The notes under the pieces were generated by a model, which saw only the letters and a program-made list of their open reading frames with translations, ran no database searches and had not been told where the DNA came from. Below, one piece after another: positions 8,342 through 58,978 of a DNA stretch of 64,000 nt (within the stretch, counting starts at the first letter, position 1; the number at the start of each line of letters is the position of its first letter). The stretch lies in contig JBFMEZ010000025.1 in NCBI GenBank assembly GCA_040753215.1, positions 74,440 through 138,439 of the forward strand, read 5' to 3'. The position numbers were made by a program, and so were the translations under genes. This DNA is from Candidatus Micrarchaeota archaeon (lineage in GTDB: Archaea; Micrarchaeota; Micrarchaeia; Anstonellales; Bilamarchaeaceae).

Positions 8342-8462
8342 GTTTCCAGTTTCCGTGTCTCTGCGGAGACAACTCCATGTTGCTTCGGCAACAACTGGCG
8401 AAGTTCTGCGGAACTTCACCATGGCAGAAACCCGCGGGTTTCCGCCATCGGGTTTCCAGTCA
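8341..8462 (+). repeat. Family A structured repeat (copy A1), flanked by GTTTCC heptamers
   Basis: A core of four consecutive hairpins: gtctctgcggagac, ttgcc-tc-ggcaa, gaagttc-tgcg-gaacttc, and atggcagaaacc...ggtttccgccat. It is near-identical to copies at 40809-40900 and 59453-59544. Confidence 0.8.
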
Positions 8463-11577: not shown

Positions 11578-12228
11578 ATGATAGTCCTCAATCTTAAGAA
11601 TTATTCCGCCTCCTTCACCCGCTGCCTCGCCCTCACGGACGCGGCCGCGAAGGTCTCCCATGATTCCGGCATGCGCATAATCGTGTGCCCCCCTCCCACC
11701 CACCTAAACTGTTCCGCCTCCATGTACAAGGACGTCTTCGCCCAGCACACGGATGCGTTCGAGCAGGGCGCGCACACAGGTTTCCTCATTCCGGAGGCGC
11801 TCAAATCCATCAACGTAAAGGGCTCATTGGTAAACCATTCCGAGCACAGGATAGGCACGGAGAATGTAGGAAAAACCGTTTCCCTGCTCAAAACCCACGG
11901 ATTGGAAACCGTGGTTTGCGGAGAAAATGCGACAGAATGCGCAGAATTAGCCAAGTTCGGCCCGGATTACATCGCGGTTGAGCCACCCGAACTCATCGGC
12001 TCAGGCATTTCAGTTTCCACAGCGAAGCCCGAAGTGATTACTTCTACAGTAGATGCAGTAAAAGCAGCCAACCCTTCCGTCCGCGTCCTCTGCGGCGCCG
12101 GAGTCTCCACAAAGGAGGATGTAAAGAAATCCCTGGAATTGGGCGCAAAGGGAGTCCTGCTCGCCTCCGCATATGTGAAGGCAAAGGACCCGGTCAAGTT
12201 TTTGCAGGAGTTCGCCGGGGCGTTCTGA
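11578..12228 (+). CDS. tpiA: Triosephosphate isomerase (archaeal type)
   Basis: The NHSEHR active-site motif is present and the protein is ~216 aa. Confidence 0.85.
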   Translation: MIVLNLKNYSASFTRCLALTDAAAKVSHDSGMRIIVCPPPTHLNCSASMYKDVFAQHTDAFEQGAHTGFLIPEALKSINVKGSLVNHSEHRIGTENVGKTVSLLKTHGLETVVCGENATECAELAKFGPDYIAVEPPELIGSGISVSTAKPEVITSTVDAVKAANPSVRVLCGAGVSTKEDVKKSLELGAKGVLLASAYVKAKDPVKFLQEFAGAF

Positions 12229-12344
12229 AAAAATGTGCCAGTCCGTGTCCGTTTAAATATTTCAGTACATAATACAACCATGAACTCAAGACGTTTGCAA
12301 TTTGTTCAGTTGGGACTGCCCATTCGTACCCGGAAGCAAGGAGA

Positions 12345-13764: not shown

Positions 13765-13999
13765 GCAAAGGACCCGGTCAAGTTTTTGCAGGAGTTTGCG
13801 GCGGCATTCTGAAAAGTGTGGTAATAGCTTCTTAAATATTCCCATATACTAATACCTTTATGAACGCTACAATTCATGCAGCAAGATTGATCCGCGGCCC
13901 GGCGCTGGAAGTGCTCGTCCCCAGGAGCAGGGGCGTGCCTTTTGACGAGGCGCTCGGGGTTGCGGAGCGGGGAAGGATGTTATTGCTTCAAACCTGAGA

Positions 14000-21378: not shown

Positions 21379-22452
21379 ATGCATGGTTCTATCACAGCCA
21401 GCGCCAGAGTGGTGCCTTCCCGCAATAGGAGCCTTCGCGGCAGGCCTCCGCTTGAAAATGTGGTCGCCGCGATCCTAAAGCCGGCGGGCCGCACGAAAGA
21501 AGAGGTGGCTTCCGCAGAGCAGGAGCTAGTCCAGAGGCGGGATTCCGGCAATTTGGGTAAAATCCGGCTTTGCTTGGCAATAAGGGCGATGGGGGCTGAG
21601 CCCTGCGACGCAAAGAAGGGACGCCTCGGCACCATTGTCCCGGATCACCTCCCGGACAGGACATTTGCAGAAGCTTGGGAGATGGTCCTCAAAAATATCC
21701 GCCTCATCGGGAAGTTTCTCTCCAGAATTCAAAATTTGCTAAAGAAATGCAACATCCCTGAAAAAGACGCCGAGCAGATACTCACCGAAAACATGTTCTG
21801 GGCCGCGCTTTTCCACGACGGCTCGAGAGCCGCATTCTCCACATACGCCATGGAATGGTTCAAGAGGGGCCGCACGGGAATCGTTGCAGAAGCAGGCCTC
21901 ATCACATTCCCGCACCACATAGTCACAGAGATGATAATGTTGGAGCGGTTCCGCGACAGGCACCCCCTCATGCCAGCGCACAGGATTGCAGATTGCCTGG
22001 ATATGGCTCCTGTGCGCGTAGAGAGGCTTATGCGCCTCCGCGGGCTCCGCGAATCATCCATACGCCCCTTAAATGCAGATACGCTTTTCAATTCCGACAC
22101 CCCTACCTTCAGGATGCACGAAACCCCGGACGAAACCCGCGGGGTGGTGCCCATAACGAGCTTCCCGCATGATGTGGTCGAGAAGATGAGGCCGCACCAG
22201 GAAGACGCTATCCTCAGGGAACAGCTCGACCAGAGCATGCGCAACGCCCTGCTGGTCCTGACTCCAAGGGAATCGCGGGTCCTGAAGATGCGCTTTGGGT
22301 TTGGAACGGGGGAAGGTGACACCTTCGAAGAAGCCGCCCGAAAGATGAACGTAACCAGGGAACGCATCCGCCAGATAGAAGCCAAGGCGCTGCGCAAGCT
22401 GTGGCACCCATCGCGCAGGTCTTTGCACCATTTCTTAGAGGATGATGATTAA
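21379..22452 (+). CDS. Bacterial-type sigma-70 (RpoD-like) homolog with degenerate region 2 and near-canonical region 4.2
   Basis: The C-terminus LTPRESRVLKMRFGF...VTRERIRQIEAKALRKLWHPSRRSLHHFLEDDD matches RpoD region 4.2 and even its C-terminal FLDD ending. Region 2.4-3.0 reads FSTYAMEWFKRGRTGIVAEAGLITFPHHIVTEMIML (compare FSTYATWWIRQAITR...RIPVHMIETINKL in RpoD). Region 2.1 reads EMVLKNIRLIGKF (compare EMVEANLRLVISIA). The first ~100 aa are unrelated to sigma factors. Confidence 0.65.
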   Translation: MHGSITASARVVPSRNRSLRGRPPLENVVAAILKPAGRTKEEVASAEQELVQRRDSGNLGKIRLCLAIRAMGAEPCDAKKGRLGTIVPDHLPDRTFAEAWEMVLKNIRLIGKFLSRIQNLLKKCNIPEKDAEQILTENMFWAALFHDGSRAAFSTYAMEWFKRGRTGIVAEAGLITFPHHIVTEMIMLERFRDRHPLMPAHRIADCLDMAPVRVERLMRLRGLRESSIRPLNADTLFNSDTPTFRMHETPDETRGVVPITSFPHDVVEKMRPHQEDAILREQLDQSMRNALLVLTPRESRVLKMRFGFGTGEGDTFEEAARKMNVTRERIRQIEAKALRKLWHPSRRSLHHFLEDDD

Positions 22453-22507: not shown

Positions 22508-22530
22508 TGCGGCCGCCGGGATTCGAACCC
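22508..22530 (-). other. Displaced 23-nt copy of the tRNA-Gly(TCC) 3' end (T-arm plus acceptor), an att-like duplication
   Basis: Identical to positions 23141-23163 of the intact tRNA. It is separated from the tRNA by the cdd cassette. Confidence 0.8.
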
Positions 22531-22534
22531 TCCC

Positions 22535-22629
22535 AAAAACGCGGAGGGGAGCGCCCCTCCCCATTTTTAGGGTTCATTCTGACCCTCCCCCAACTTCTCT
22601 TTGCAACCCTTTGCCAGTACTCCTTACGC
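22535..22629 (+). repeat. Family B repeat, copy B1
   Basis: It contains aaaacgcggaggggagcgcccctcccca (a near-palindromic hairpin), then ttctgaccctccccc, ctttgcaa, and ...actccttacgc. Nine other copies are present in the window. Confidence 0.8.
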
Positions 22630-35870: not shown

Positions 35871-36078
35871 AGCCCCGGAGGGGGATTGAACCCCCGACCT
35901 CTCGCTGTCCCGTTTCCGGTTTCCGCATCTCTGCGGAGATGACTCCGCTTCTCTGCGGAGAAGACTGGCAGAATCCTTCGGGATTCCGCCATGGCAGAAA
36001 CCTGCTGGTTTCCGCCATCCTGTTTCCAGTTCCGAACCGGATTACGAGGCGAGCGCTCTACCGCTGAGCTACCGAGGC
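35871..36078 (-). tRNA. tRNA-Thr (anticodon CGT) with ~136-nt intron (about 35906-36041) in the anticodon loop at or near position 37/38
   Basis: Exon 1 reads GCCTCGGTAGCTCAGCGGTAGAGCGCTCGCCTCGTAA and exon 2 reads GCGAGAGGTCGGGGGTTCAATCCCCCTCCGGGGCT. The anticodon stem is ctcgc/gcgag with loop ctCGTaa. The intron contains a family-A repeat copy. Confidence 0.7.
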
Positions 36079-40511: not shown

Positions 40512-40790
40512 ATGGAATATATCATACTCTCACCCTGCACAACCGCAAAGACCCGGGAACTCCGCATGCGCGGCAGGATAGACATCCGCAAGGCGGAGAA
40601 AGCCCTCCCCCCGGAAGCTGATATCCTCGCGTTCACAGAAGTGTTCCTTTCCCTCGCCTACAAGGGAAAACCCTTCTCCCTCTACCCCTCCGGAAAGATA
40701 ATAGTGAAGGATTCGGAGGCGGAAGAGGCGAAGTCCCTTCTGAAGGAGATGTTCTCCCTTTTAGAGAGAAAAGGGTGCCTGAGTGAGTAG
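40512..40790 (+). CDS. Small hypothetical protein
   Basis: 92-aa ORF. Confidence 0.3.
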   Translation: MEYIILSPCTTAKTRELRMRGRIDIRKAEKALPPEADILAFTEVFLSLAYKGKPFSLYPSGKIIVKDSEAEEAKSLLKEMFSLLERKGCLSE

Positions 40791-40808
40791 CCAGTCCCCC
40801 GTTTCCAC

Positions 40809-40900
40809 ATCGCTTCGCGATGACTCCATGTTGCCTCGGCAACAACTGGCGAAGTTCTGCGGAACTTCACCATGGCAGAAACCTTCCGGGTTTCCGCCAT
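40809..40900 (+). repeat. Family A repeat, copy A4, overlapping the 5' end of the PHP gene
   Basis: Reads atcgcttcgcgatgactccatgttgcctcggcaacaactggcgaagttctgcggaacttcaccatggcagaaaccttccgggtttccgccat. Confidence 0.8.
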
Positions 40901-41538
40901 CCAGTTTCCCGAAGCTAAACATTGACTTCCACGTGCACACCTCCTTCTCTTCGGATGGAAGGATAAAATTAGCTGAACTCGCCTCCCTTTCCAAACAATT
41001 CGGAATAATCCCCGCCCTCACCGACCACAACAACATGGATGCCTGCTCCCCCTTCAAAAAATTCGAAATCCCCTTCATCCCCGGAGAGGAAATCCGCGTT
41101 GCACAGGGCGATTTCATAGGCCTCTTCCTCTCCGAGCCGATTCCTGAAGGGATAGATTTCTACGAAGCCCTCGACTTAATCCGTGCGCAGGGAGCCCTCG
41201 CTTATGTCCCGCACATGTTCGACGCACTCCGCCCCGGAGTAGTAAAGGAGGAATACGGAAAAGCCGCAGACATAATAGAAGTATTCAACGCCCGCTCCTT
41301 CGCCCGCTTCGACAGGCAGGCAGAAGAATTCGCCAAAAGGGAAGGCAAATTAATGGCGGCAGGAAGCGACGCCCACTTCCCGTTCGAATTCGGGCACACT
41401 TATACCGAATTAAGCCTCACCCCAGACCAACTGGAACCCAAATCTCTTCTCCGCGCTTTAAAGAATGCGAGAATAGCAGGAAAGCGCACTTCTTTTCTCA
41501 AGAGGAAAATAGCGAAATATACCGGAATCTACATCTAA
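40828..41538 (+). CDS. PHP-domain phosphoesterase; the only in-frame ATG lies inside repeat A4
   Basis: The PHP motif begins at LNIDFHVHTSFSSDG, with a later GSDAH motif. No ATG/GTG/TTG lies between the repeat and the first His motif. The annotated N-terminus MLPRQQLAKFCGTSPWQKPSGFPPSSFPK is therefore repeat-encoded. Confidence 0.6.
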   Translation: MLPRQQLAKFCGTSPWQKPSGFPPSSFPKLNIDFHVHTSFSSDGRIKLAELASLSKQFGIIPALTDHNNMDACSPFKKFEIPFIPGEEIRVAQGDFIGLFLSEPIPEGIDFYEALDLIRAQGALAYVPHMFDALRPGVVKEEYGKAADIIEVFNARSFARFDRQAEEFAKREGKLMAAGSDAHFPFEFGHTYTELSLTPDQLEPKSLLRALKNARIAGKRTSFLKRKIAKYTGIYI

Positions 41539-42509
41539 AGGAACTCCCTAATCGGGTTCAGCATCCTCTCTTCTATCGCAGAAATATATTTGTGGTTCCC
41601 AATCACATGCCCGAATTTGGTCTTTACCCCGCTTATGAACCTGTGCAGCTCAGCCGTATTCTCCACAATCACATCCACCTCAATGTCCCAGCTCCCTATG
41701 CACTTGTTCAGGAACACCACATTATCATGCTCAAGGCAGAAGCCCAGGAACTCCTTCTCCTTTTCTCTCGTAATGCTTCTAAAGTTTATCAAAATCTTAT
41801 AGTACTCAAACCCCATCCTCTTCGCATCAAACCACGCCGTATACCCAAGTATGAACCCCTCTCTAGTAAGCCGGTCCATCCTATACCTCACCGCATCAGG
41901 GGTGAGCCCAACCTTCCCAGCCAAATCCACCGTCGTCGCCCTCGCATCCCCATACAATGAAGCCAGTATCTTCATATCCGTTTCATCCCGCTTCTCTGCC
42001 TCCACCACCCTCTCCAGCGGGAACTCCGGGTGCCTCTCCCCTCCCACCGCCCTGTTCCACGATAAATATGTCTGGTACGTAGTAGTGACGACCGTCTTCT
42101 CCACAATCCTCGCCCCAAACCTTTCCGTCATCATATTTATCGCATCCTCCACCTCCTTCTCGTCCCTCGCTACAATCCTCCACAGCACGTCATACGCCCC
42201 CTCGCATACCACCCCCCAGAGCGTCCGCTTGTAGGATTCGAACAGCGCCACCACCTCCTTCTCCGCCTTCTCATCGAACACGTCAAATCTCAGGTAAATC
42301 CTGTATGCCTTGAAGCCCAGCTTCGCAAGGTTGACGTCAGCAAACAGCAGCGATATTGTGCCCGCCTCTCTGAGCTGCCTCATCCTCCGCTCCACTGCGC
42401 TGCTGCTCATCGGGGCGGTAATCCAGATGCTTTGACATTTTCTTTCTTTTATTTTTTCTGCATTATAATGCATAAAAATATGCAAAATTGTTTCGATGCT
42501 TTCCACCAA
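41535..42509 (-). CDS. Tandem-duplicated Lrp/AsnC family transcriptional regulator (two HTH_AsnC plus RAM units)
   Basis: Two HTH_AsnC segments (SSSAVERRMRQLREAGTI and ARATTVDLAGKVGLTPDAVRYRMDRLTREGFILGY) are each followed by a RAM-like domain. Confidence 0.65.
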   Translation of the reverse strand: MVESIETILHIFMHYNAEKIKERKCQSIWITAPMSSSAVERRMRQLREAGTISLLFADVNLAKLGFKAYRIYLRFDVFDEKAEKEVVALFESYKRTLWGVVCEGAYDVLWRIVARDEKEVEDAINMMTERFGARIVEKTVVTTTYQTYLSWNRAVGGERHPEFPLERVVEAEKRDETDMKILASLYGDARATTVDLAGKVGLTPDAVRYRMDRLTREGFILGYTAWFDAKRMGFEYYKILINFRSITREKEKEFLGFCLEHDNVVFLNKCIGSWDIEVDVIVENTAELHRFISGVKTKFGHVIGNHKYISAIEERMLNPIREFL

Positions 42510-42613
42510 TTGATACGCATTCTATTAAATCAATTTGAACAAATGACCATCAAAATATGAAATCAATTTTATAAAATGCATATATTTAAAAGGAATTAGC
42601 CCGTAATACTTAC

Positions 42614-43816
42614 ATGGACCAGGAACTCATTGAACTCAACAACGAAGCAAAAAAGGAAGGCAAAAAATACGCAAAAAAAAGGTTCATCTACCCGAAAATA
42701 GCCGCAGGGCTGGCGGAGCGCGAACACACTGCCCTCGTTGGCCCGAGGGGCGCGGGGAAGACAATCCTGCTTAAGCAGCTTCTTGCGGGCAACGAAAGCG
42801 CATTCTATGTTTCACTGGACACCTCAAGGATAGAAGGCGGGCTGTTCAGGCTTGCAAAAGAGCTATCGGATTCCGGCATCAAGCTGCTCCTTCTGGACGA
42901 GATACACGGCTATCCCGGCTACGATTTGGAGCTCAAGAGGATTTACGATTTCCTGGGAATCAAGATTGTCTTGACCAGTTCTTCTGCCCTTACCCTCCAC
43001 GAGCTGGCGGCCGACCTCTCCAGGAGGATGCGCATCATAAAAATCAGGCCGTTCTCCTTCAGGGAATACCTGTTCTTCCAGAACGATGAGCTGCTGGAGC
43101 CCCTCAGCTTCGTGCAGTTATCCGATGAGAAATCTTCACGGGAATATCTGGGCAGAGCCCTCCATGCTGAACCCCGCCTGGAAGAATACATGAAGGGAAG
43201 GAATTATCCGCTGGCGCTCGGGAGGCAGGATTTCCTGCCGTTGTTCAGGAACATCCTTGAAACAGTCATAAACAGGGACCTGATCAGGACAGGGAAGGTC
43301 AGCCACGACGAAACCCTCCATATCGCCAGGCTCGTGGCATATCTCGGCAAATCCCATCCGGAGGATATGAACTACACATCCATTGCAAAGAACATAGGCA
43401 TAAGCAGGCATATGGCCGAAAAATACGTGGGTCTGCTGGAAAAGGCATTCGTGTTGCATGTGGTGCCGCCGGAAGGGCAGGGCGTCATGAAGGAGCCCAA
43501 GGTGCTCATTGCCCTCCCGTACCGCCTCCTCTATCGCCCATACGAGGAGTGCATCGGAGCCCTGCGCGAGGACTTTTTCGTCGATTCTGCCGTCTGGCTC
43601 GGCTTCGGCCCAAAATATCTCAAAACCAACCGTGGGGAAAAAACCCCGGACTATGCGATTGACGATACGGTTTTTGAAATAGGAGGACCAGGCAAGGGGC
43701 ATTCCCAGTTCAAGGGGTTCGCACTGAAGAGGAAGATAATACTGACACATCCCGGAATGCTTGATGCAATGCGCCGGCCACTATTCTTCATGGGCTTGCT
43801 GGAAGAAGGGCAGTGA
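42614..43816 (+). CDS. AAA ATPase of the AAA_14/DUF4143 family (COG1373)
   Basis: Walker A reads GPRGAGKT and Walker B reads LLLDEIH. A C-terminal DUF4143-like domain is present. Confidence 0.7.
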   Translation: MDQELIELNNEAKKEGKKYAKKRFIYPKIAAGLAEREHTALVGPRGAGKTILLKQLLAGNESAFYVSLDTSRIEGGLFRLAKELSDSGIKLLLLDEIHGYPGYDLELKRIYDFLGIKIVLTSSSALTLHELAADLSRRMRIIKIRPFSFREYLFFQNDELLEPLSFVQLSDEKSSREYLGRALHAEPRLEEYMKGRNYPLALGRQDFLPLFRNILETVINRDLIRTGKVSHDETLHIARLVAYLGKSHPEDMNYTSIAKNIGISRHMAEKYVGLLEKAFVLHVVPPEGQGVMKEPKVLIALPYRLLYRPYEECIGALREDFFVDSAVWLGFGPKYLKTNRGEKTPDYAIDDTVFEIGGPGKGHSQFKGFALKRKIILTHPGMLDAMRRPLFFMGLLEEGQ

Positions 43817-43920
43817 CCAGGGAAGATATCCGCAGATTTGCAGCCTCAGATTGTCGGTTATGGAAGGAAAAAATCCGCAAAAGTTTCCTTCCATGTTAGA
43901 CGCCTTATAGCATCGTTTTT

Positions 43921-44122
43921 CACTGAACCTCCACGGCTCGGTCACACCTTGTAGTCGCCTGCGTGGCGGCGATAGGTCTGCCTAGCCATTGGGTGCGGCT
44001 ACAAGGTGTGAGGAAGCCTCGGCATTTATGCCGGGGAGGAGAGCCGAGGCTTCCTCTAAAGGCAGCAGGAATACATCTGCCCTTTATCTACGAAGAAGCC
44101 ACGGCCTTTAGTGGAGGTTCAC
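43921..44122 (+). repeat. Family C ~200-nt structured repeat, copy C1
   Basis: 99% identical to 46120-46325. The ends (cactgaacctccac...gtggaggttcac) are inverted-repeat-like and can pair. It has internal hairpins (gaggaagcctcggc/gccgaggcttcctc and caccttgtag/ctacaaggtg). Confidence 0.8.
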
Positions 44123-44186
44123 AAAACGCTTATTTAAGAAGATACCATTAATCGCAAAAACGATAAATGACTCGGTCCGACGATGA

Positions 44187-44882
44187 CTATTTTTCTCCAA
44201 CCACAATCGCAAAATTAGCTAAAGGTGGCACCAGCACCCGTGTTTTTCTGAACCCAAACCCATCCATAATCTTCTTCAGCTCAAGTGGGCAGATAGGGTA
44301 TTCCTTCGGATGCTTTTCCTGGTACTCCTTGCTCATGCCTTTCAGCGCCTGCGCCCAGCTCCGGTCGAATTCTCTTGCCCTTTTTGGATTCTTCTTTCTT
44401 AATCTCCAAACTTTTTCCTTATACTCGCTACTGGGCTTAAACCAGTCCCCTATCACCAGTCTTCCGCCTTCACGAAGAGACTTCCGTATCCGGGAAATAA
44501 CAGCCGCCTTATTCTTCACGTGATGAAAAGCGAGGTTGGAAACCACATAATCTGCACGCCCGCCGAACCCCTCTATCGGAGAAGCTTTGAATTTCATATT
44601 CTTAATTCCAGCAACCCTAACCTTCCCCATTGCTACCTTCATCATGCCTTTGGAAACATCCACGCAAGTTACCTGCGCCTTCGGCTTCCTCTCCGCAAGC
44701 CTTATGGCAAGCCCTCCACTCCCGGCTCCCAGGTCCGCCACCCTGCATTTCCGGTCCGGAACCTCCCTTATTATGTTGTCCACAAGCCATCTGTAAAACA
44801 AGTATTGGTACCTGTCCTGCTCTTCGTACTCTTTCGCGTATTTATCGAAGAACTCCTTTGCCTTTTTCACAATCAAAACCAC
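44187..44882 (-). CDS. Class I SAM-dependent methyltransferase
   Basis: SAM motif I reads VADLGAGSGGLAI. The start is a GTG that overlaps the stop of the displaced fen-1 tail. Confidence 0.75.
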   Translation of the reverse strand: MVLIVKKAKEFFDKYAKEYEEQDRYQYLFYRWLVDNIIREVPDRKCRVADLGAGSGGLAIRLAERKPKAQVTCVDVSKGMMKVAMGKVRVAGIKNMKFKASPIEGFGGRADYVVSNLAFHHVKNKAAVISRIRKSLREGGRLVIGDWFKPSSEYKEKVWRLRKKNPKRAREFDRSWAQALKGMSKEYQEKHPKEYPICPLELKKIMDGFGFRKTRVLVPPLANFAIVVGEK

Positions 44883-44945
44883 TTATCCAAAGTCCGCTGG
44901 CTCCGCGTCTCCTTCACGTTGCTCATCATCCCTTCCAGCGCCTTC
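44876..44945 (-). other. Displaced duplicate of the fen-1 3' end (last 22 codons, ending in a canonical PIP box)
   Basis: It encodes ALEGMMSNVKETRSQRTLDKWF*. The current gene end is EGMLSNVKETRSQRTLDKWL*. Nucleotide identity over 70 bp is about 70%. Confidence 0.75.
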
Positions 44946-44951
44946 TCCCGG

Positions 44952-45020
44952 AAAAACGCGGGGAACCCAGGTTCCCCCCATTTTTACCGTTTATTCTGAC
45001 CCCCTCCTAACGGTTTTCAG
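44952..45020 (+). repeat. Family B repeat, short copy B7, lying between fen-1 and its displaced 3' end
   Basis: Reads aaaaacgcggggaacccaggttccccccatttttaccgtttattctgaccccctcc. Confidence 0.7.
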
Positions 45021-46054
45021 AGCCACTTATCCAATGTTCGTTGGCTTCTTGTTTCTTTTACATTGCTTAGCATTCCCTCTAAAGCTCTTTCTACCCTCTC
45101 CCTTGAGAAATCGTGCTCCTCCACCAACAATTCTATTACTCCCTCCCTGCTCGCCTTCCCCCACCCCAGCTCTCCGACCTCCTTCACTGGCGGGCTCATG
45201 AAAAAACCGAAAATCGCCTCCACATCCTCAGGAAACTCATATCCCTTCTCCTTCTTCAAATATGCCCTCACCTTCTCCAGCGTATCATTCTCTTTCACAA
45301 TCTTCAGACCGGTTTTCGGCCCAATCCCCCGCACCCCTTCATTGAAATCCGTTCCCACAAGAATCCCAATCAAAATCAATTGCTCCCTCTTCAGCCCAAG
45401 CGCCTTCAGCGTCTCTTCCAGCTCCACCCTCTCAATCTCTATATCTATGAACCTATTCTGCTTCGGCACCTTCCTTTTCCCGGTAATGGACAAATTCCTC
45501 AAAAGCACCGGCGACCCAAATAGAACCGAATCATAATCCTGCGATGCGGCCGCATAGCAAAGCCCTGTCCCCACCATCCACGCTGCCTGCGCCTCCCCTT
45601 CAGAGGGCGCCTGCACCCAGGGAATCCCCATCAGTGAAAGCAGCCTCTTCCCCTCATCCACCATCTCCTTGGTGAGCCGCGAGCTTGCCTGCGCATATTT
45701 CCTCGCCTCCTCAATTTTCTCCTCCGCAAGCGCCTTCTTCCATTTGTGCTCCGCCTCCCTCCGCACCTCTATCCTTTCCTCTATAGTTTTCCTCTTGAAT
45801 TCCGGCGGAGGCCCGTCAAACACATAAATAGGTTTTATCCCAGCATTCACCAATCTTATGCTCCTGTAAAATAGCCCAGATAAATGCCCGGTCACCCGCC
45901 CCTTCATATCCATTAAGGGCGTCCCGTCCTCCTGCCTTATGGAAGCCAAAAATTGATAGAGTATATTCATCCCATCTATCGCTATGCTCTTTCCCGCAAG
46001 CTCCTCCAGCTCGACCTTGTGCTTAATTGCAAGGTCGCCCAAATCTACTCCCAT
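45017..46054 (-). CDS. fen: Flap endonuclease 1
   Basis: The XPG-N and XPG-I motifs and the N-terminal sequence MGVDLGDLAIKHKVELEELAGKSIAIDGMNILYQFL are present. The C-terminal PIP-like box reads QRTLDKWL. Confidence 0.9.
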   Translation of the reverse strand: MGVDLGDLAIKHKVELEELAGKSIAIDGMNILYQFLASIRQEDGTPLMDMKGRVTGHLSGLFYRSIRLVNAGIKPIYVFDGPPPEFKRKTIEERIEVRREAEHKWKKALAEEKIEEARKYAQASSRLTKEMVDEGKRLLSLMGIPWVQAPSEGEAQAAWMVGTGLCYAAASQDYDSVLFGSPVLLRNLSITGKRKVPKQNRFIDIEIERVELEETLKALGLKREQLILIGILVGTDFNEGVRGIGPKTGLKIVKENDTLEKVRAYLKKEKGYEFPEDVEAIFGFFMSPPVKEVGELGWGKASREGVIELLVEEHDFSRERVERALEGMLSNVKETRSQRTLDKWL

Positions 46055-46119
46055 CCTAATCCTCGCTTACCTATAATCAGGCATACTTTTATTTCTCTGC
46101 CTGCCGCAGCCGGCAGACT

Positions 46120-46325
46120 CACTGAACCTCCACGGCTCGGTCACACCTTGTAGTCGCCTGCGTGGCGGCGATAGGTCTGCCTAGCCATTGGGTGCGGCTA
46201 CAAGGTGTGAGGAAGCCTCGGCATTTATGCCGGAGAGGAGAGCCGAGGCTTCCTCTAAAGGCAGCAGGAATACATCTGCCCTTTATCTACGAAGAAGCCA
46301 CGGCCTTTAGGCCGTGGAGGGTCAC
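46120..46325 (+). repeat. Family C repeat, copy C2
   Basis: See copy C1. This copy ends in the perfect hairpin gccacggcc-ttta-ggccgtggag. Confidence 0.8.
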
Positions 46326-46567
46326 AGAACAAGGAACTTCGTTTTAGCCAGCACTTCATGCACTGCTGCAATCTCCATCCTTGACTCTATTGCCTCTATT
46401 TTCTTCCTAATTCTCTCGTACTCCTCCTCTTCTATGAACTCCTCCCCGCATTTGCCGCACACAAACAGGGTCGTGTCCGAAATAACATACCTGCCAAGAA
46501 ACATCCTATTTACTCCGCTAACCTTCTTCATGGAATGCCTGCATTTTGCGCATTTTATGCCGCTCAT
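46322..46567 (-). CDS. Zinc-ribbon protein (YgiT/MqsA-type antitoxin-like), downstream partner of the DUF4258 gene
   Basis: Two CxxC pairs are present (CAKCRH...CGKCGE). The gene overlaps the upstream gene by 4 nt. Confidence 0.45.
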   Translation of the reverse strand: MSGIKCAKCRHSMKKVSGVNRMFLGRYVISDTTLFVCGKCGEEFIEEEEYERIRKKIEAIESRMEIAAVHEVLAKTKFLVL

Positions 46568-46932: not shown

Positions 46933-47469
46933 CTACTCGTTCTTCTTTTTCTTCTGCATTTCCAACATATCCAGGAGAGTAAGCTCAGTCTTCCCCCCTC
47001 CGCCTTTAGGGGTAGGTGAAACCGAGACCTCCACCTTCTCCACTAATTTTATTCCCAAGGCCTTCTCCAGTTTCCTCGCCTCCTCCAGGCTGGGCGCAAC
47101 CCTCTCATTCTCAATCTTGTCCAGCCAGGAGGCCTTCACATTCACTTTCCGCGCCAGCTCCTCAATCGTCATCACGCGCGTCTTCTTCTCCTTCTTCCCG
47201 TATTCGTTCACTTCCTCAAAAGTAATCTTTACATTCTCCCGCGCCCTCCTGATTTTCCGCCCGTACCCGTCCACCACTTCCTCTTCCATCCGGAACTGTT
47301 TCGGAGTAGTATAGTCCACTTTAACGGGCGCTTCCTCTTCTTCCCCGCTCCCCAAAGAATGCAGAATCTTCCCGTGGTAGGCGCAGCGGGGGCACACCGC
47401 CATCTTCGCGCCCTCCACCGCGATTATGAAGGCAACCCCCTTCCTCCCGCAGATGTCGCAATCCACCAT
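46933..47469 (-). CDS. mbf1: Archaeal multiprotein-bridging factor 1 (aMBF1: zinc ribbon plus HTH_XRE)
   Basis: An N-terminal CDICGRK...CPRCAYHG zinc ribbon is followed by a C-terminal HTH (MTIEELARKVNVKASWLDKIENE). Confidence 0.7.
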   Translation of the reverse strand: MVDCDICGRKGVAFIIAVEGAKMAVCPRCAYHGKILHSLGSGEEEEAPVKVDYTTPKQFRMEEEVVDGYGRKIRRARENVKITFEEVNEYGKKEKKTRVMTIEELARKVNVKASWLDKIENERVAPSLEEARKLEKALGIKLVEKVEVSVSPTPKGGGGKTELTLLDMLEMQKKKKNE

Positions 47470-47995: not shown

Positions 47996-49348
47996 ATGGA
48001 CCACGTCAAGCTCTTCGCAGTAATACTCCTCACGGCAATCGCTATCTGGGCAATAGTCCAGACCGACCTACCGCCCACTGCAAAGTTCATCTCTTCGATA
48101 ATAATCCTCGCCATCTCCGGAGAGATAATCGCCCGCATCGCAAAGCTCCACAGCGACTGGGGCCTCATCCTTCTCCGCACCCAGAAGGGGATAGACATGG
48201 CAAGGGATTTTGCAAAAAGGGAAAAGTTCTGGAACCTCTTCTCTGATTTCGGCCTCGCCCTTTCCTATGGAATCCTCTCCTTCTTCGTAATAGAGAGAAG
48301 GGGCGCAAAAGAGAAGGCAGGCATAATCGCAGCCGCCCTCCTCACCATAACCTTCCTCCTCTTCTTCGTCTCGCCGCTCATCCTCCCCTTCCTTTCCTAC
48401 ACGCTCGGGATGCCGATAGGTGGAGGAAGGGCCGCGCATATAGACCCGCTCAGCTCCCTCCTCATTCTCGCCCTGGTCTATGTCGGCGGCTTCGTGTTCT
48501 TCATAACCGCCAGCCTCCTAATGTACGCGTTTGTGGTGATAGGCGCGGTCGCATCCACCCTTTTATGGGGAACAACCGCAATCTCAGAGACCGCTCCCGG
48601 CCTCACCCTTATTCTCCCGGGCATAAACATCCCGCTTTTCGAGGGCCTGCTCGCCCTCATAATCATCCTTCTGGTCCATGAAGGCGCCCACGCGGTCCTC
48701 GCGGTAATAGGGAAAATCCCCATCCTCTCCTCAGGAATCGCATTCTTTGGGATAGTCCCAATAGGAGCATTTGTGGAGCCCGATGAGAAGCGTCTTGCCA
48801 CCAAATCCCCAGAAGTGCAGAAGCGCGTAATAGTCGCGGGCTCCACTGCCAATCTAACCACCTCCATCCTCTTCTTCATCCTCCTCATTGCTTTCCTCTC
48901 CCTTTCCGCACCGTTCAAGGAAAAGGGATGGTATGTGCTCAGCGGAATGGACAACGGGACCATAATTTATGCGATAAATGGAATCCCGGTGGAAAACCTT
49001 CCGGAAAATTATGCTGCCCCGAACACCACCATAAACCTCACCACCAATCGCGGAATAATCGAACGCACCGCCAATTCCACCGGAGGCTACGACATCTCAT
49101 ACATCCCGATGGACTACGCACCCTTCACCCAATACGCGAACCCGATCCTTTCCTTCATCTTCAAAACTTTAGTCCTCGCATTCGCCCTCAATTTCATCAT
49201 AGGAGTAGTCAACCTCCTCCCGCTCCCCTTCTTCGATGGGATGCGTTTGCTGGAATTGTCCGTAAACAATAAGCGCTTCACTGATTTTGTAATGTATCTC
49301 ATCCTGGCGGCTTTTCTGTCCAATTTACTCCCCTGGTTCTTCAGATAA
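47996..49348 (+). CDS. Site-2 protease (M50 family intramembrane metallopeptidase)
   Basis: The HEGAHAV (HExxH) motif lies in a TM helix. Multiple TM helices and a PDZ-like insert are present. Confidence 0.75.
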   Translation: MDHVKLFAVILLTAIAIWAIVQTDLPPTAKFISSIIILAISGEIIARIAKLHSDWGLILLRTQKGIDMARDFAKREKFWNLFSDFGLALSYGILSFFVIERRGAKEKAGIIAAALLTITFLLFFVSPLILPFLSYTLGMPIGGGRAAHIDPLSSLLILALVYVGGFVFFITASLLMYAFVVIGAVASTLLWGTTAISETAPGLTLILPGINIPLFEGLLALIIILLVHEGAHAVLAVIGKIPILSSGIAFFGIVPIGAFVEPDEKRLATKSPEVQKRVIVAGSTANLTTSILFFILLIAFLSLSAPFKEKGWYVLSGMDNGTIIYAINGIPVENLPENYAAPNTTINLTTNRGIIERTANSTGGYDISYIPMDYAPFTQYANPILSFIFKTLVLAFALNFIIGVVNLLPLPFFDGMRLLELSVNNKRFTDFVMYLILAAFLSNLLPWFFR

Positions 49349-49467: not shown

Positions 49468-49782
49468 GTGAAGAAAATGGAGGAAAGATTGGAGGAGTTT
49501 GAGGAAATAGAGGAGCCAAAAAAGGGGAGAAAGCCAAGTTCTGATGAGTCCGAATCCGCACCGAGCGAAAGCGTTGGCGCGAGGCCGGACTTCCGCGTGG
49601 TCCAGACCGAAAGGGATGCGGAGGGCAAGACAATATACAAGAACGTGGGTGGGCTCTGGAAGCGCACGAGCAAGAATGGAAACACATACTACAGCATGAG
49701 CATAGGCCGATTGAGGCTGCTCGTATTCCCTAACGACAGGGATGGTGGTTCTTATGGCAGAGAAGACAGAGAAGAAATATGA
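49468..49782 (+). CDS. Hypothetical acidic/basic small protein
   Basis: 104-aa ORF with a strong Shine-Dalgarno-like sequence (aaaaggtgaag) about 8 nt upstream. Confidence 0.4.
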   Translation: MKKMEERLEEFEEIEEPKKGRKPSSDESESAPSESVGARPDFRVVQTERDAEGKTIYKNVGGLWKRTSKNGNTYYSMSIGRLRLLVFPNDRDGGSYGREDREEI

Positions 49783-52252
49783 GCTCCCGAAGGAGCTGGA
49801 GGACCTTCCTGGAATAGGGGAGGCGACCGCGGAGAGGCTGCGCAAGGCCGGTTATACATCTATGGACCAGATTGCGGCCGCGATGCCCCACGAGCTCGCG
49901 GAAGCGGGTGAATTCGGGGCGGAAGCCGCAAAGAAGGCCATCGCAGTTGCGCAGGAAGCTGTGGAGACCGGCTACGAGACCGCGGACCTGATATTCGAGC
50001 GCAGGAAGGAAATCAAGAGGATTCCAACCGGCTCCAAGAACTTCGACGATTTGATTGGAGGCGGAGTGGAGACCCAGGCAATCACCGAGTGCTTCGGAAA
50101 GTTCAGTTCTGGGAAATGTGTTTCCGGGGATACCCCGCTGGTCTTCTTCAATTCCAGCTCCCCGCACATTCGCTCCTTTGAGGACGTATATAATACATAC
50201 AAGACCGAAGAGTTCGAGCAGGATGGCGGCACATTCTCCGTTCCCTCAAAGGAACTGCACGTGCTCAGCCTCGGGGATGACTGCCAATTGAGGAAGGAAA
50301 AGGTCCAGCACCTCTACAAGGAGAAAGTAACTTCGATACAAGAGATGGAAACCTCCCGCGGCTCGGTCATAAAGGCGACGAAGAGGCACCCGCTCCTCGT
50401 TTTCTCAGAAGAAGGGATGGAGTGGAAATCTTCTGGCCTTCTTTCCGAAGGGGCGTACGTTGCGGTGCCAAAAGAGATAAGGACAGAATCAGAGACGGAG
50501 ATAAGCGCAGAGGATGCATATTTCCTCGGCCTCTTTGCCGCTGAGGGTACAGCCAATCCATTCAGCATAACCAACTACGATGAAAAAATAAACGCAAAGC
50601 TGCACGACTACATACGAAAGAGGTTCGGCAGGGAGCCGTCCTTCAGGAAGGAGAGGGGCCTCACGCTCCTTTTCAAGGACGCAGAACCTTTGCTCGGGGA
50701 GCTCGCCTCTTCCAATTCCGGGACGAAGTTCATACCGGACAGCGTGCTCAGCGGAAGTGATGAGATTGCTGCCTCATTCCTGTCGGGCTACATAGATGGC
50801 GACGGCTTCGTCTCCAACTGCCCCGAGCTTTGCACGAAATCCGCAAAACTCGCCTCCCAGCTGACCTACCTCCTTTCCCGCTTTGGGATAGGCTGCTCGG
50901 TCAGGCACAAGAAGGTGGAGGAGAGCAGGTTCTACAGGATTTTCATAACCGACGCAGGAAGCAAAACGCGCCTCATGAAAATCCTGGGCCAGAGCACGAA
51001 GGGCCTGGATGCGCTTTCCTGCGAAGGCAAGCACTCGGAATACGGGATTCCGTCCAAACCATTGCGCACAATCCTGAAGCGGCTGCACGGGAAGCTCTCA
51101 GGCACGCACAGGAGGGACATCTCGGCCAAGAAGGCGGAAATAGCGGAGGGAAAGTTCTTCAGCCTCTATTTTAACTACCTTGCAAGGACTCCCGCGACCC
51201 GCGTGGCCACGGAAGAAACCGTGAAGCTTGCCCTGGATTTCTACAGGGAGAGGGTAGGGAAGATGCGCGGGCACGAGGCGCTCCTCTCGGAGCCAACAAG
51301 TGAAAAAATCCTCAACGCGCTTAGGGACATTCTGTTCAAGAGCACTGCCCTTGTGCAGAGGCTCGGGATAAAGAGGCCGACCTTCCAGAATTTCGTAACC
51401 AGGAAGAAAGTTCCGGAGGAAAGGGTTGCGCAGGTCGCCTCGGCTATCCGCACCCTTATTGCGGAGACTCTCTCGGACCCAGCCCTTGCAAAAGACCTCA
51501 AGACGCTGGAACTGCTCGCAAACGGGAACATGCGCTGGGAAAAGGTCATAAGGATGGAAGAGAAGCCCTACGACGGATATGTGTACGACCTGGTCGTTCC
51601 GGGGGCGCACAACTTCGTCGCTGGCTTCAAGCCGATGCTGATGCACAACACGCAGGTCGGCTTCCAGCTCGCGGTGAACGCCCAGAAGGCCCTCTCAGCC
51701 AACGGAACGCCCGCAAGGGTCCTCTTCATAGACACGGAAAGCACCTTCCGCCCGGAGAGGATAATCCAGATTGCGGAGGCGCAGGGGCTGGATCCGCAGG
51801 AGGTCCTGAAGAACATCCTCGTCGCCAAGGCTGAGAACTCAGACCACCAGCTGATTCTCGTGGAAAAGGCCGGCAACGTAATCGAGAAGGAGAACATTAA
51901 GCTGATAATAGTCGACTCCCTCACCTCCCACTTCCGCGCTGATTACGTAGGCAGGGGCGCCCTTAGCGAAAGGCAGCAGAAGCTGAACAAGCACATCCAC
52001 ACCCTGCAGAAGTATGCGGACAAGTACAACATCGCAATCTATGTGACCAACCAGGTCATGGACAACCCGGGGATTCTTTTCGGGGACCCGACCATGCCGA
52101 TTGGAGGCCACATTTTGGCGCACGCAGCGACCTACCGCCTCTACCTGCGCAAGAGCAAGGAGGAAAAAAGGATTGCGAGGCTCGTGGATTCGCCCAACAT
52201 GCCCGAAGGCGAGACGGTCTTCAAGGTCACGAAGGGCGGCGTAATCGATTAG
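49757..52252 (+). CDS. radA: DNA repair and recombination protein RadA, interrupted by a 511-aa intein with LAGLIDADG homing endonuclease domain (intein approx 50117-51649)
   Basis: The N-terminal HhH reads LPGIGEATAERLRKAGY. The Walker A motif is split GKFSSGK|CVSGDTPL...MLMHN|TQVGF. The intein carries LAGLIDADG motifs YFLGLFAAEG and LSGYIDGDG. The exteins total 325 aa, typical of RadA. Confidence 0.9.
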   Translation, partial: AEKTEKKYELPKELEDLPGIGEATAERLRKAGYTSMDQIAAAMPHELAEAGEFGAEAAKKAIAVAQEAVETGYETADLIFERRKEIKRIPTGSKNFDDLIGGGVETQAITECFGKFSSGKCVSGDTPLVFFNSSSPHIRSFEDVYNTYKTEEFEQDGGTFSVPSKELHVLSLGDDCQLRKEKVQHLYKEKVTSIQEMETSRGSVIKATKRHPLLVFSEEGMEWKSSGLLSEGAYVAVPKEIRTESETEISAEDAYFLGLFAAEGTANPFSITNYDEKINAKLHDYIRKRFGREPSFRKERGLTLLFKDAEPLLGELASSNSGTKFIPDSVLSGSDEIAASFLSGYIDGDGFVSNCPELCTKSAKLASQLTYLLSRFGIGCSVRHKKVEESRFYRIFITDAGSKTRLMKILGQSTKGLDALSCEGKHSEYGIPSKPLRTILKRLHGKLSGTHRRDISAKKAEIAEGKFFSLYFNYLARTPATRVATEETVKLALDFYRERVGKMRGHEALLSEPTSEKILNALRDILFKSTALVQRLGIKRPTFQNFVTRKKVPEERVAQVASAIRTLIAETLSDPALAKDLKTLELLANGNMRWEKVIRMEEKPYDGYVYDLVVPGAHNFVAGFKPMLMHNTQVGFQLAVNAQKALSANGTPARVLFIDTESTFRPERIIQIAEAQGLDPQEVLKNILVAKAENSDHQLILVEKAGNVIEKENIKLIIVDSLTSHFRADYVGRGALSERQQKLNKHIHTLQKYADKYNIAIYVTNQVMDNPGILFGDPTMPIGGHILAHAATYRLYLRKSKEEKRIARLVDSPNMPEGETVFKVTKGGVID

Positions 52253-58888: not shown

Positions 58889-58978
58889 ACTCCTCCCTAA
58901 AACGCGGAGGGGAGCGCCCCTCCCCATTTTGAGGGTTCATTCTGACCCTCCCCCATCTCCCCTTTCCATTGCTTTGCA
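58889..58978 (+). repeat. Family B repeat, copy B9, inserted between rpl39e and rpl31e and flanked by a 15-bp direct duplication (catgctctcactcct)
   Basis: The duplicates at 58870-58884 and 58977-58991 contain the rpl31e RBS/ATG and the rpl39e stop region respectively. Confidence 0.75.

Follow-up and report, generated by a model that had tools for sequence, protein, structure and literature searches.

Family C, a probable gene-less mobile repeat found on both sides of fen-1 in a Micrarchaeota genome

Introduction

Two nearly identical, structured elements of about 200 nt lie in direct orientation on either side of fen-1 and a SAM-dependent methyltransferase gene in a contig of a Candidatus Micrarchaeota archaeon, and the arrangement raises the question of whether the repeats are the ends of a unit that moves the genes between them or are insertions in their own right. 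We analyzed the surrounding 64,000-nt stretch of the contig (the window), together with genome, viral, plasmid, phage, and metagenome sequences. Mobile repeats without genes are familiar from Sulfolobus and haloarchaea, and a full-text search identified no papers naming both Micrarchaeota and miniature inverted-repeat elements. We conclude that the repeat, family C, is most probably a non-autonomous, gene-less transposable element of ~200 to 212 bp, of the MITE or small-mobile-repeat kind, and that its two copies in the window (C1 and C2) are separate recent insertions, a reading of mobility that draws on the dispersal of seven copies across two lineages.

Results

Two near-identical direct repeats in the window

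A repeat search of the window identified a direct repeat of 192 nt with 99% identity, its copies 2199 nt apart (43920-44111 and 46119-46310), and a MAFFT alignment showed that the shared unit is longer, spanning 43921-44122 and 46120-46325. Both analyses bear out the initial annotation, which described two ~99% identical, ~200-nt direct repeats around fen-1 and a SAM methyltransferase, and a chance origin is impossible for a repeat of this length and identity. The main features of the locus are as follows.

43921 to 44122, + strand: C1, copy of repeat family C, 202 nt, lacking 4 nt of the 3′ hairpin (private deletion)
44187 to 44870, − strand: SAM-dependent methyltransferase gene (Pfam Methyltransf_31/25/11), in a 3.4-kb stretch absent from relatives
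44873 to 44948, − strand: remnant duplicate of the final 25 fen-1 codons
45017 to 46054, − strand: fen-1, context outside the element, native and at its usual gene-order place
46120 to 46325, + strand: C2, copy of repeat family C, 206 nt, with a private T>G in the 3′ terminal repeat

In the MAFFT alignment, C1 and C2 are separated by two substitutions and one 4-nt indel. One substitution is in a loop (G/A at 44035/46234); the other, a T in C1 where C2 has G, falls in the 3′ terminal repeat. The indel is a GGCC near the 3′ end that is absent from C1 and present in C2. The last bases of C2 (TCA) form the stop codon of an 81-aa open reading frame (ORF) on the − strand (46322-46567). Searches by blastn, an nhmmer profile, and the terminal repeats found no third copy within the 64-kb window.

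Dispersed copies in a second lineage

A scan of JGI metagenome contigs with the pattern of the terminal inverted repeats (TIRs) returned 38 loci, five of which are full-length copies of C, with the pattern matching on both strands. These five align with the window copies over their full length at 84-86% identity and are 98.6-100% identical to each other, with no similarity outside the element. The seven copies range from 202 to 212 bp and occupy at least six different contexts. Those in the metagenomes are single, neither in arrays nor in pairs, and sit among unrelated archaeal housekeeping genes: one lies between DNA ligase/methyltransferase and AP endonuclease genes, another between genes for PurP and ribosomal protein L3, and further copies adjoin genes for an OB-fold protein and a Na/H exchanger. 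Orientation relative to the neighboring genes varies, with convergent, divergent, and tandem arrangements all seen. One contig (L049) stops exactly at the C boundary, which a repeat that breaks assemblies would be expected to cause. Another (L064) includes a segment of repeat family A, 92% identical to that in the window, and its host is therefore a related organism.

Several other matches were set aside. The remaining 33 of the 38 metagenome loci, and 26 further loci with the TIR pattern in genome contigs (Thermus, actinomycetes, and others), are chance matches, none of which aligns to C. A methyltransferase gene beside C in contig L043 might suggest a pattern shared with the window, but its product has 26% identity to that in the window, over the SAM-binding fold, and we regard the juxtaposition as a coincidence. 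A viral match to a 21-mer from hairpin H1 (L011) is a bare 21-nt chance match within GC-rich coding sequence.

No intact copy of C was found in 185,579 species-representative genomes, viral contigs, or plasmid or phage records, and the family is therefore rare. A 23-mer from hairpin H2, whose last base differs in the other lineage, had no match in species-representative genomes or viral contigs, and a 22-mer from the 3′ linker, a variable region, had none in metagenomes. Segments that both lineages conserve gave no match in two viral scans, nor did blastn find any in plasmid and phage records, and an nhmmer profile built from all seven copies detected no diverged or partial copies in the window and 76 loci.

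C has no ORF conserved between the lineages and is non-coding: one reading frame is open through the metagenome copies, and every frame is broken by indels in the window copies. A protein search with the concatenated open translation frames of C, which could have revealed spurious ORFs called on further copies, gave no match. Among the 28 larger window ORFs scanned, all housekeeping or accessory genes, there is no transposase or integrase.

Termini and insertion junctions

All seven copies have 14-15 bp TIRs, TGAACCTCCACGGC...GCCGTGGAGGTTCA, in agreement with the complementary termini reported previously. In C1, the termini TGAACCTCCAC/GTGGAGGTTCA show perfect complementarity over 11 bp, and in C2 the pairing extends over 14 bp with one mismatch. 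The terminal features of the two window copies are listed here.

43920 to 43923, + strand: left-junction motif TCAC at C1 (YYAC across all seven copies)
43924 to 43937, + strand: 5′ TIR of C1 (TGAACCTCCACGGC)
44111 to 44121, + strand: 3′ TIR of C1 (GTGGAGGTTCA), shorter because of the 4-nt deletion and followed by a final C at 44122
46119 to 46122, + strand: left-junction motif TCAC at C2
46123 to 46136, + strand: 5′ TIR of C2
46311 to 46324, + strand: 3′ TIR of C2 (GCCGTGGAGGGTCA), with one mismatch

With a slash marking the junction, the family ends can be written as YYAC/TGAACCTCCACGGC on the left and GCCGTGGAGGTTCAC on the right; the boundaries are shared by 7/7 copies, which start (Y)YAC/TGAACC and end GGTTCAC, and the flanks diverge directly outside. 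The left flanks read TCAC in three copies (plus CAC at the start of contig L047), TTAC in one, and CTAC in two, and positions −3 and −4 are pyrimidines at 13/13 bases, a small sample of six to seven flanks. At the right end, a TCAC is encoded by the element itself in 7/7 copies. The empty sites would read ...CGTTTTTCAC/AAAACGC... for C1 and ...GACTCAC/AGAACAAGG... for C2.

A systematic search of the flanks of the seven copies (offsets ±8, lengths 2-10) found no target-site duplication; its only matches, AC and YYAC against TCAC, extend into the element itself. The initial annotation had offered a third MITE family as its fallback reading, and it is this reading that gains support, from the five dispersed copies, their unrelated flanks, the TIRs, and the common junction motif. 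It had also allowed that C might be a simple local duplication with no TIRs; copies exist beyond the pair, and the TIRs are present.

Conserved fold on a favored strand

The + strand of C folds with a minimum free energy of −112 kcal/mol (z = −8.0; 0/200 shuffles fold as well), and the − strand with −103 kcal/mol (z = −7.0). The + strand has an advantage of 5-9 kcal/mol in both lineages, and folding z scores range from −8 to −9 across them. Extended internal helices, another feature claimed at the outset, are evident as the 17-bp and 14-bp stems of hairpins H1 and H2 plus a 3′ hairpin.

43943 to 44010, + strand: hairpin H1 of C1, with a 17-bp lower stem invariant across lineages and a variable tip; begins 19 nt past the left junction
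44010 to 44056, + strand: hairpin H2 of C1, with a perfect 14-bp stem and GGAGGAG in the loop
46142 to 46209, + strand: hairpin H1 of C2
46209 to 46255, + strand: hairpin H2 of C2
46298 to 46317, + strand: subterminal 3′ hairpin of C2 (CCACGGCC-TTTA-GGCCGTGG), 8 nt from the right end, competing with the closing stem

The columns that diverge between the two lineages are in loops and hairpin tips, and the stems are nearly invariant: 4/88 stem and TIR columns differ compared with 29/121 (~24%) of the other columns (Fisher p = 9e-5), and three of the four stem differences are the private deletion of C1. Pair columns of the consensus structure contain G.U in nine cases versus A.C in two, and the G.U-type pairs favor the + (top) strand. 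Among the seven copies from two lineages there is one compensatory pair, in the H1 tip, plus several one-sided G.U changes. The left hairpin H1 and the right hairpin have a single stretch in common, the heptamer CCACGGC. On the − strand, the subterminal 3′ hairpin of C2 has a terminator-like score.

Could C then be a multi-copy gene for a structured non-coding RNA, read from the + strand and spread by duplication, with its stems under selection as RNA? The very strong folding in both lineages, invariant stems with diverged loops, the strand preference of the G.U pairs, and the compensatory and one-sided changes in the H1 tip all fit such a gene, as does the best sub-threshold Rfam match in both lineages, to the archaeal HgcC RNA. 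An Rfam scan, however, assigns C to no family at threshold, RNase P and SRP included, which also disposes of the suggestion that it might belong to a known non-coding RNA family: at the gathering threshold, the whole window contains four tRNAs only, and with E ≤ 10 nothing in C2 or the L043 copy reaches threshold. The HgcC matches reach 19.8 and 20.8 bits, where the gathering score is 50. HgcC (Rfam RF00062) is a structured archaeal RNA whose function is unknown, the part of it that aligns to C is limited to GAGGAG and a hairpin whose loop is UUUA, and the two lineage matches are not independent; C is not an HgcC member. The stems themselves, almost perfectly Watson-Crick paired over 12-17 bp, are typical of DNA palindromes or young repeats and not of folded RNAs, the orientation of C to its neighbor genes is inconsistent, and the TIR, sharp junctions, and junction motif are hallmarks of transposons. 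An RNA gene with a function would not usually be missing altogether from close relatives, as C is. We therefore consider an RNA gene distinctly unlikely. We note that the RNA-gene and mobile-element readings are compatible, as a mobile element can also be transcribed.

Native fen-1 between two copies of C

The window FEN-1 is 100% identical to NCBI MEW5996874.1. In relatives (L001-L010), FEN-1 is 83-89% identical, fen-1 DNA is 78-84% identical, and the gene has the same neighborhood without C; its ancestral position there is between HTH_3/M50 and PHP, and the regional gene order in the window (PHP ... fen-1 ... HTH_3, M50, RadA) agrees. Because its place is kept in relatives without C, fen-1 is native and not cargo. 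The locus has nonetheless been rearranged, with a 3.4-kb insertion between fen-1 and PHP and a second copy of the fen-1 3′ end. The duplicated 3′ ends are 71-75% identical, compared with 99% for C1 and C2, and the C pair is therefore much younger than that rearrangement. Homologues of the window methyltransferase have at most 57% identity to it. The region upstream of fen-1 does not align with relatives, and when the five metagenome loci were compared by tblastx with the window and relatives, they showed no orthologous flanks. These comparisons yielded no empty site.

A rearranged locus, and the junction bases that C1 and C2 have in common (TCAC...TCACA-AAC), would be consistent with a pair made by local duplication or gene conversion during rearrangement of the fen-1 locus, with C itself not mobile. 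The five copies with identical boundaries in unrelated contexts of another lineage already largely refute this explanation, which is also at odds with the difference in identity between the C pair and the fen-1 3′ ends; we regard it as very unlikely.

The initial annotation saw the pair as a functional bracket able to circularize or mobilize fen-1 and the methyltransferase, and C1 and C2 might accordingly be att-like or LTR-like ends of a cassette, or integron attC sites. The direct orientation, the 2.2-kb spacing with two genes enclosed, and the location of the methyltransferase in DNA absent from relatives are as expected of a cassette, and the termini loosely resemble attC core sites (ACTGAAC versus RYYYAAC). 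Integron attC sites are typically 57-141 bp, with an R″ of RYYYAAC, an R′ of GTTRRRY, an unpaired central spacer, and extrahelical bases as hallmarks, and form cassette arrays, usually near an integron integrase. C is longer than attC sites, and its closing stem is continuous, without an unpaired central spacer or extrahelical bases; compared by eye with the consensus, ACTGAAC has one mismatch and the right end, GTTCACA, misses GTTRRRY at three positions. The 28 ORFs scanned include no integrase, each of the five other copies stands alone among unrelated housekeeping genes, and fen-1 occupies the same gene-order place, with 78-84% DNA identity, in relatives without C. A mobilizing bracket is thus unsupported, since fen-1 is ancestral where C is absent, and a cassette or attC origin is highly improbable.

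An artefact of assembly of the metagenome-derived genome, with one repeat placed twice, is scarcely credible: repeats are error-prone spots in metagenome assemblies and one metagenome contig does break at an element boundary, but C1 and C2 carry different private mutations, regional gene order agrees with relatives, and assemblers are more prone to collapse repeats than to create them.

Comparison with known repeat families

TIR-bearing repeats without target duplication, and gene-less elements derived from IS605, have been described in archaea (PMC3119063). Family C resembles the Haloquadratum walsbyi small mobile repeats SMR-A/B (Dyall-Smith et al. 2011, PMC3119063), which are likewise short, gene-less, and archaeal, with prominent TIRs, no target duplication, no known transposase partner, highly identical copies, and too little length for a transposase. 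The SMRs are ~80-110 bp, unlike C with its 200-212 bp and long internal hairpins, and there is no sequence similarity; SMR-A prefers insertion into other mobile elements, whereas C lies between housekeeping genes, and the hosts belong to different phyla.

C is also like MITEs in being small, non-coding, TIR-bearing, and dispersed in intergenic DNA, with a stable hairpin fold; MITEs normally share their TIR with a known DDE transposon and are flanked by a target-site duplication, and C shows no duplication. With PATEs, which derive from IS200/IS605 elements and carry no genes (PMC3119063; PMC10055086), it shares the lack of target duplication, insertion by a short conserved motif (YYAC) with a similar TCAC at its end, a subterminal hairpin (in C, 8 nt in from the right end), and one favored strand. 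By definition, PATEs and IS200/IS605 elements have no TIRs and have similar palindromes at both ends, and C differs in both respects; the stem is 17 bp in its left hairpin H1, 19 nt from the junction, and 8 bp in its right hairpin, 8 nt from the end. In the window and the loci examined, no element carrying tnpA or tnpB was found to share its ends with C.

A further possible resemblance is to bacterial REPIN/REP and enterobacterial ERIC-type repeats, which are likewise extragenic, palindromic, structured, and multi-copy, and lie near gene ends; these families are tied to RAYT transposases. The GTAG...CTAC pair in H1 recalls REP heads, although no RAYT was seen, and there is no sequence similarity to REP or ERIC.

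Discussion

We propose that C1 and C2 would have inserted independently into variable intergenic DNA flanking a native fen-1, and that the 14-15 bp TIRs would form a closing stem around two long, near-perfect hairpins and a 3′ region with alternative folds. Lacking a conserved reading frame, C must depend for its movement on a transposase encoded elsewhere. A tentative candidate is single-strand "peel-and-paste" transposition by an IS200/IS605-type Y1 (HUH) enzyme, suggested because the junction features, strand asymmetry, and subterminal hairpins fit; in such a process C would insert 3′ of a short target motif, with a similar motif at its own right end. IS200/IS605 elements are present in >65% of Micrarchaeota genomes (PMC13343696), gene-less derivatives of them adjoin TnpB elements (PMC10055086), and TCAC is the motif reported for AmaTnpB (bioRxiv 10.1101/2023.03.06.531077). 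The clear 14-15 bp TIR of C and its unlike left and right hairpins are contrary evidence. Alternatively, C may be a TIR element that inserts without target duplication and uses another mobilizer, like the Haloquadratum small mobile repeats.

C could also be an IS200/IS605-type derivative that still encodes an omega-RNA-like guide-RNA scaffold on its top strand, which we think rather unlikely. Each copy would then be transcribed to a structured RNA with its 3′ end running into the flank, and a TnpB-like nuclease encoded elsewhere in the small DPANN genome would cut the empty site (TCAC plus flank). Such a system would account for the strand-specific conserved stems and for the TCAC junction motif. 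In a variant of this reading, C would represent a new class that combines single-strand transposition with terminal inverted pairing. Effects of C on neighboring genes, through its terminator-like hairpin or promoter-like TTTA/TATAAA stretches, would be incidental.

As a probable mobile element, family C is selfish DNA of an ordinary sort that is new for Micrarchaeota. Exactly bounded, marked by a junction motif, and known from two diverged lineages, it is defined well enough to aid annotation, and it accounts for contig breaks. It also cautions against reading the fen-1/methyltransferase pair as a cassette. The movement of the Haloquadratum small mobile repeats has been left open (PMC3119063), and if a partner enzyme for C is found, the way in which "orphan" repeats of this sort transpose could be learned from C, with its TIRs, TCAC-type junction, and lack of target duplication. 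For the host, two direct copies around fen-1, described in the initial annotation as an essential replication gene, constitute a latent deletion hazard, as loss of fen-1 by recombination between C1 and C2 is physically possible.

C1 and C2 are near-identical structured repeats

A repeat search of the window identified a 192-nt direct repeat (43920-44111 versus 46119-46310) with 99% identity and a spacing of 2199 nt, and pairwise alignment of the shared unit extended this to the two copies of the structured family C:

43921-44122, C1, 202 nt
46120-46325, C2, 206 nt

The copies differ at three places: a loop substitution, a 4-nt indel (C1 lacks GGCC), and a substitution in the C2 3′ terminal repeat. 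The termini pair, with TGAACCTCCAC(GGC) complementary to (GCC)GTGGAGGTTCA, and enclose two long helices and a 3′ hairpin. Folded as RNA, the + strand reaches -112 kcal/mol (z = -8.0) and the - strand -103 kcal/mol (z = -7.0), with 0 shuffles as good. A SAM methyltransferase and fen-1 lie between the copies, and alignment, folding, and gene content thus confirm the initial annotation of ~99%-identical structured direct repeats around these two genes. No third copy was found in the window by blastn, an nhmmer profile, or a terminal-repeat search.

C is dispersed in two lineages

Exact scans with words from the C interior returned nothing useful, and the terminal-repeat pattern TGAACCTCCACGGC-N(160-190)-GTGGAGG matched 26 genome loci and 38 metagenome loci. 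Five metagenome loci are matched on both strands, i.e. both terminal repeats are intact, and exactly these (JGI contigs L043, L047, L049, L054, and L064) give full-length blastn alignments to C, at 85-86% identity; the others are chance matches, as none of them aligns. Identity among the five copies is 98.6-100%. They have nothing in common outside the element, lie at loci with a GC content of 0.51-0.56, and sit between archaeal housekeeping genes:

Genes neighboring the metagenome copies of C
ATP-dependent DNA ligase, methyltransferase, AP endonuclease
aIF5B, PurP, ribosomal protein L3
OB-fold protein
Na/H exchanger

L064 also contains a fragment of family A, another dispersed repeat family of the window, at 92% identity, and the host is therefore a related archaeon. 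The L049 contig stops exactly at the last base of C, as expected where a multi-copy repeat breaks an assembly. C is thus a dispersed family, known from two lineages and no fewer than six insertion contexts, with ~99% identity within a lineage and ~85% between them. It is absent from the viral contigs and plasmid/phage records in the collections searched.

Ends and fold of C

Similarity among the seven copies begins at ...YYAC|TGAACC, with pyrimidines at positions -3 and -4 (13/13 bases), and stops at ...GGT TCAC; the next base is A in five of six copies and G in the sixth.

Tetranucleotide to the left of each copy
TCAC: C1, C2, L049
CAC at contig start: L047
TTAC: L043
CTAC: L054, L064

No target-site duplication emerged when boundary offsets and duplication lengths were varied systematically; the only repeated words at the ends are AC, or YYAC versus TCAC, of which the right-hand one is constant and part of the element. 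One frame is open throughout the metagenome copies, every frame of the window copies is broken by indels, and the frames of the ORFs listed over C differ from one lineage to the other; C is therefore not coding.

The lineage consensuses differ in 4 of the 88 columns that form the closing stem, the lower stem of H1, and the stem of H2 (H1 and H2 being the two long hairpins), versus 29 of 121 elsewhere (Fisher p = 9e-5); three of the four stem differences are C1's private deletion. The differences concentrate in the H1 tip, H2 loop, third hairpin, and linker. Pairing in the H1 tip is partly kept: one change there is compensatory, and several others are one-sided, involving G.U. In each lineage the + strand gives the better fold, and pair-columns with G.U number nine versus two with A.C mismatches. 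The 3′ part has competing folds: GCCGTGG has two possible partners, the 5′ end and the adjacent CCACGGCC.

fen-1 is flanked by accessory DNA

The window FEN-1 matches MEW5996874.1, which comes from a Candidatus Micrarchaeota MAG (151,904-bp contig), at 100% identity. Ten contigs of relatives (L001-L010; FEN-1 83-89% identical) all carry an M50 protease, an HTH_3 regulator, variable small genes, fen-1, and PHP, which faces fen-1 and usually abuts it. The window keeps this order:

40783-41538, PHP
45017-46054, fen-1
46933-47469, HTH_3
47996-49348, M50

The fen-1 DNA is 78-84% identical between the window and these relatives, and DNA comparison shows that all of them lack C. From the common gene order, this identity, and the absence of C, we conclude that fen-1 is native and not cargo. 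C is therefore not a cassette boundary, and the initial proposal that the repeats could act as a bracket that circularizes fen-1 and the methyltransferase is unsupported.

The window has two stretches that the relatives lack. The first (41536-44948, ~3.4 kb, between PHP and fen-1) contains an Lrp-like regulator, an AAA_14/DUF4143 ATPase, C1, the methyltransferase, and a fen-1 remnant; PHP and fen-1 abut in three of four related lineages examined, and the L010 spacer is 103 nt. The second lies upstream of fen-1, where DNA similarity to relatives ends exactly at the start codon, and contains C2 along with a DUF4258/zinc-ribbon pair resembling a toxin-antitoxin module. Both being extra relative to the relatives, the two C copies lie in variable, accessory DNA.

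The last 25 codons of fen-1 are present twice, 144 nt apart:

44873-44948 (-), downstream 74-nt remnant in the 3.4-kb stretch, encoding EKALEGMMSNVKETRSQRTLDKWF*
45017-45090 (-), live end, encoding ERALEGMLSNVKETRSQRTLDKWL*

Their DNA is 71-75% identical, with nearly all differences synonymous, and the remnant is closer to relatives than the live end is (81% versus 61%, to L009). The final 75 nt of the live copy and the hairpin that follows therefore look like an import, through illegitimate recombination, from an L010-like lineage. C as a mere by-product of local rearrangement was rejected, as the duplicated fen-1 ends are 71-75% identical versus 99% for C1 and C2.

Directly downstream of fen-1 in both the window and L010 is a member of an A5-hairpin-T5 repeat family (GGGGAACCCAGGTTCCCC between A and T runs; 44949-45016, 22529-22614, 58892-58977, and L010 7039-7100), with 89% identity to the 22529 copy. 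The repeat looks like a two-way terminator.

Other repeats and genes in the window

A tRNA gene at 35871-36078 (-) (Rfam, 46 bits), missed by ARAGORN, has the anticodon loop CU-CGU-AA and is thus tRNA-Thr CGU. Its ~138-nt intron, at the canonical 37/38 position, is a copy of family A, which is also found at 8342, 40793, and 59437, with partial copies at 263, 23296, and 63576. The predicted fold is a cloverleaf whose anticodon helix is extended and whose bulges loosely resemble a splicing motif. GTTTCC runs flank family A copies and resemble a GTTTCC-rich 40-mer (CAGTTTCCAGTTCCC...) present eight times (401, 2529, 18299, 24820, 33481, 35890, 46890, and 56530); the 46890 copy lies near C2, between the toxin-like gene and HTH_3. 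A 58-nt repeat (TTCTGACCCCCTCCCACTTCACTTTGCAAC...; 22578, 23397, 35283, and 38717) near tRNA genes could be a promoter or flank module common to them, and a 51-nt direct repeat (GCAAAGGACCCGGTCAAGTTTTTGCAGGAG...) occurs at 12181-12231 and 13765-13815 (92% identity, 1.6 kb apart).

RadA/Rad51 (49742-52252, +; 836 aa) is interrupted by an intein carrying a LAGLIDADG endonuclease domain; the relatives' RadA proteins are 321-323 aa and intein-free. A 357-aa protein encoded by this archaeon (21379-22452, +) has a match to bacterial Sigma-70 region 4 (PF04545, E = 4e-17). The 90%-identity cluster of MEW5996872.1, to which the window's AAA ATPase belongs, also includes two unrelated 54-aa ENA peptides, a database clustering artefact.

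C as a mobile element

Dispersal, sharp conserved ends, terminal inverted repeats (TIRs), the lack of an ORF, and near-identity within a lineage make a non-autonomous transposable element the most likely reading of C, with C1 and C2 as two recent insertions; the alternative first offered, a third MITE family, is supported. No transposase was found among 28 window ORFs scanned.

We speculate that C moves by the "peel-and-paste" transposition described for IS200/IS605 (PMC10055086, PMC3119063), in which a Y1 transposase works on single-stranded hairpins and places the element 3′ of a short target motif. The resemblances are four: the absence of target duplication, the conserved YYAC to the left with TCAC at the element's own right end, a hairpin in subterminal position (8 nt from that end), and one favored strand. 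TCAC is a reported TnpB-adjacent motif (bioRxiv 10.1101/2023.03.06.531077), and IS200/IS605 elements occur in >65% of Micrarchaeota genomes (PMC13343696). Under the same model, C2 would have inserted without altering the stop codon of an 81-aa ORF, its TCAC end taking the place of the target TCAC. However, IS200/IS605 is defined as lacking TIRs, which C has, and the two end hairpins of C are dissimilar to each other. Given these mismatches, the closest descriptive match is the Haloquadratum "small mobile repeat," which likewise has TIRs, no target duplication, and no known mobilizer (PMC3119063). That C is a gene-less IS200/IS605-type element still supplying a guide-RNA scaffold seems improbable.

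A known noncoding RNA family, which the initial annotation had named as a possible refutation, was not found: a whole-window Rfam scan reports only four tRNAs, and nothing over C reaches threshold. The best match, archaeal HgcC (RF00062), scores 19.8 and 20.8 bits in the two lineages (gathering score, 50); it covers 46151-46253 of the window and 3430-3539 of L043, a UUUA-loop hairpin then GAGGAG. An integron attC site was dismissed on its poor core-site fit, a stem without unpaired spacer or bulged bases, single copies elsewhere, and no integrase among the ORFs scanned.

A non-autonomous element of this kind is not surprising; recognizing C is helpful in annotation and provides a lead to its mobilizer.
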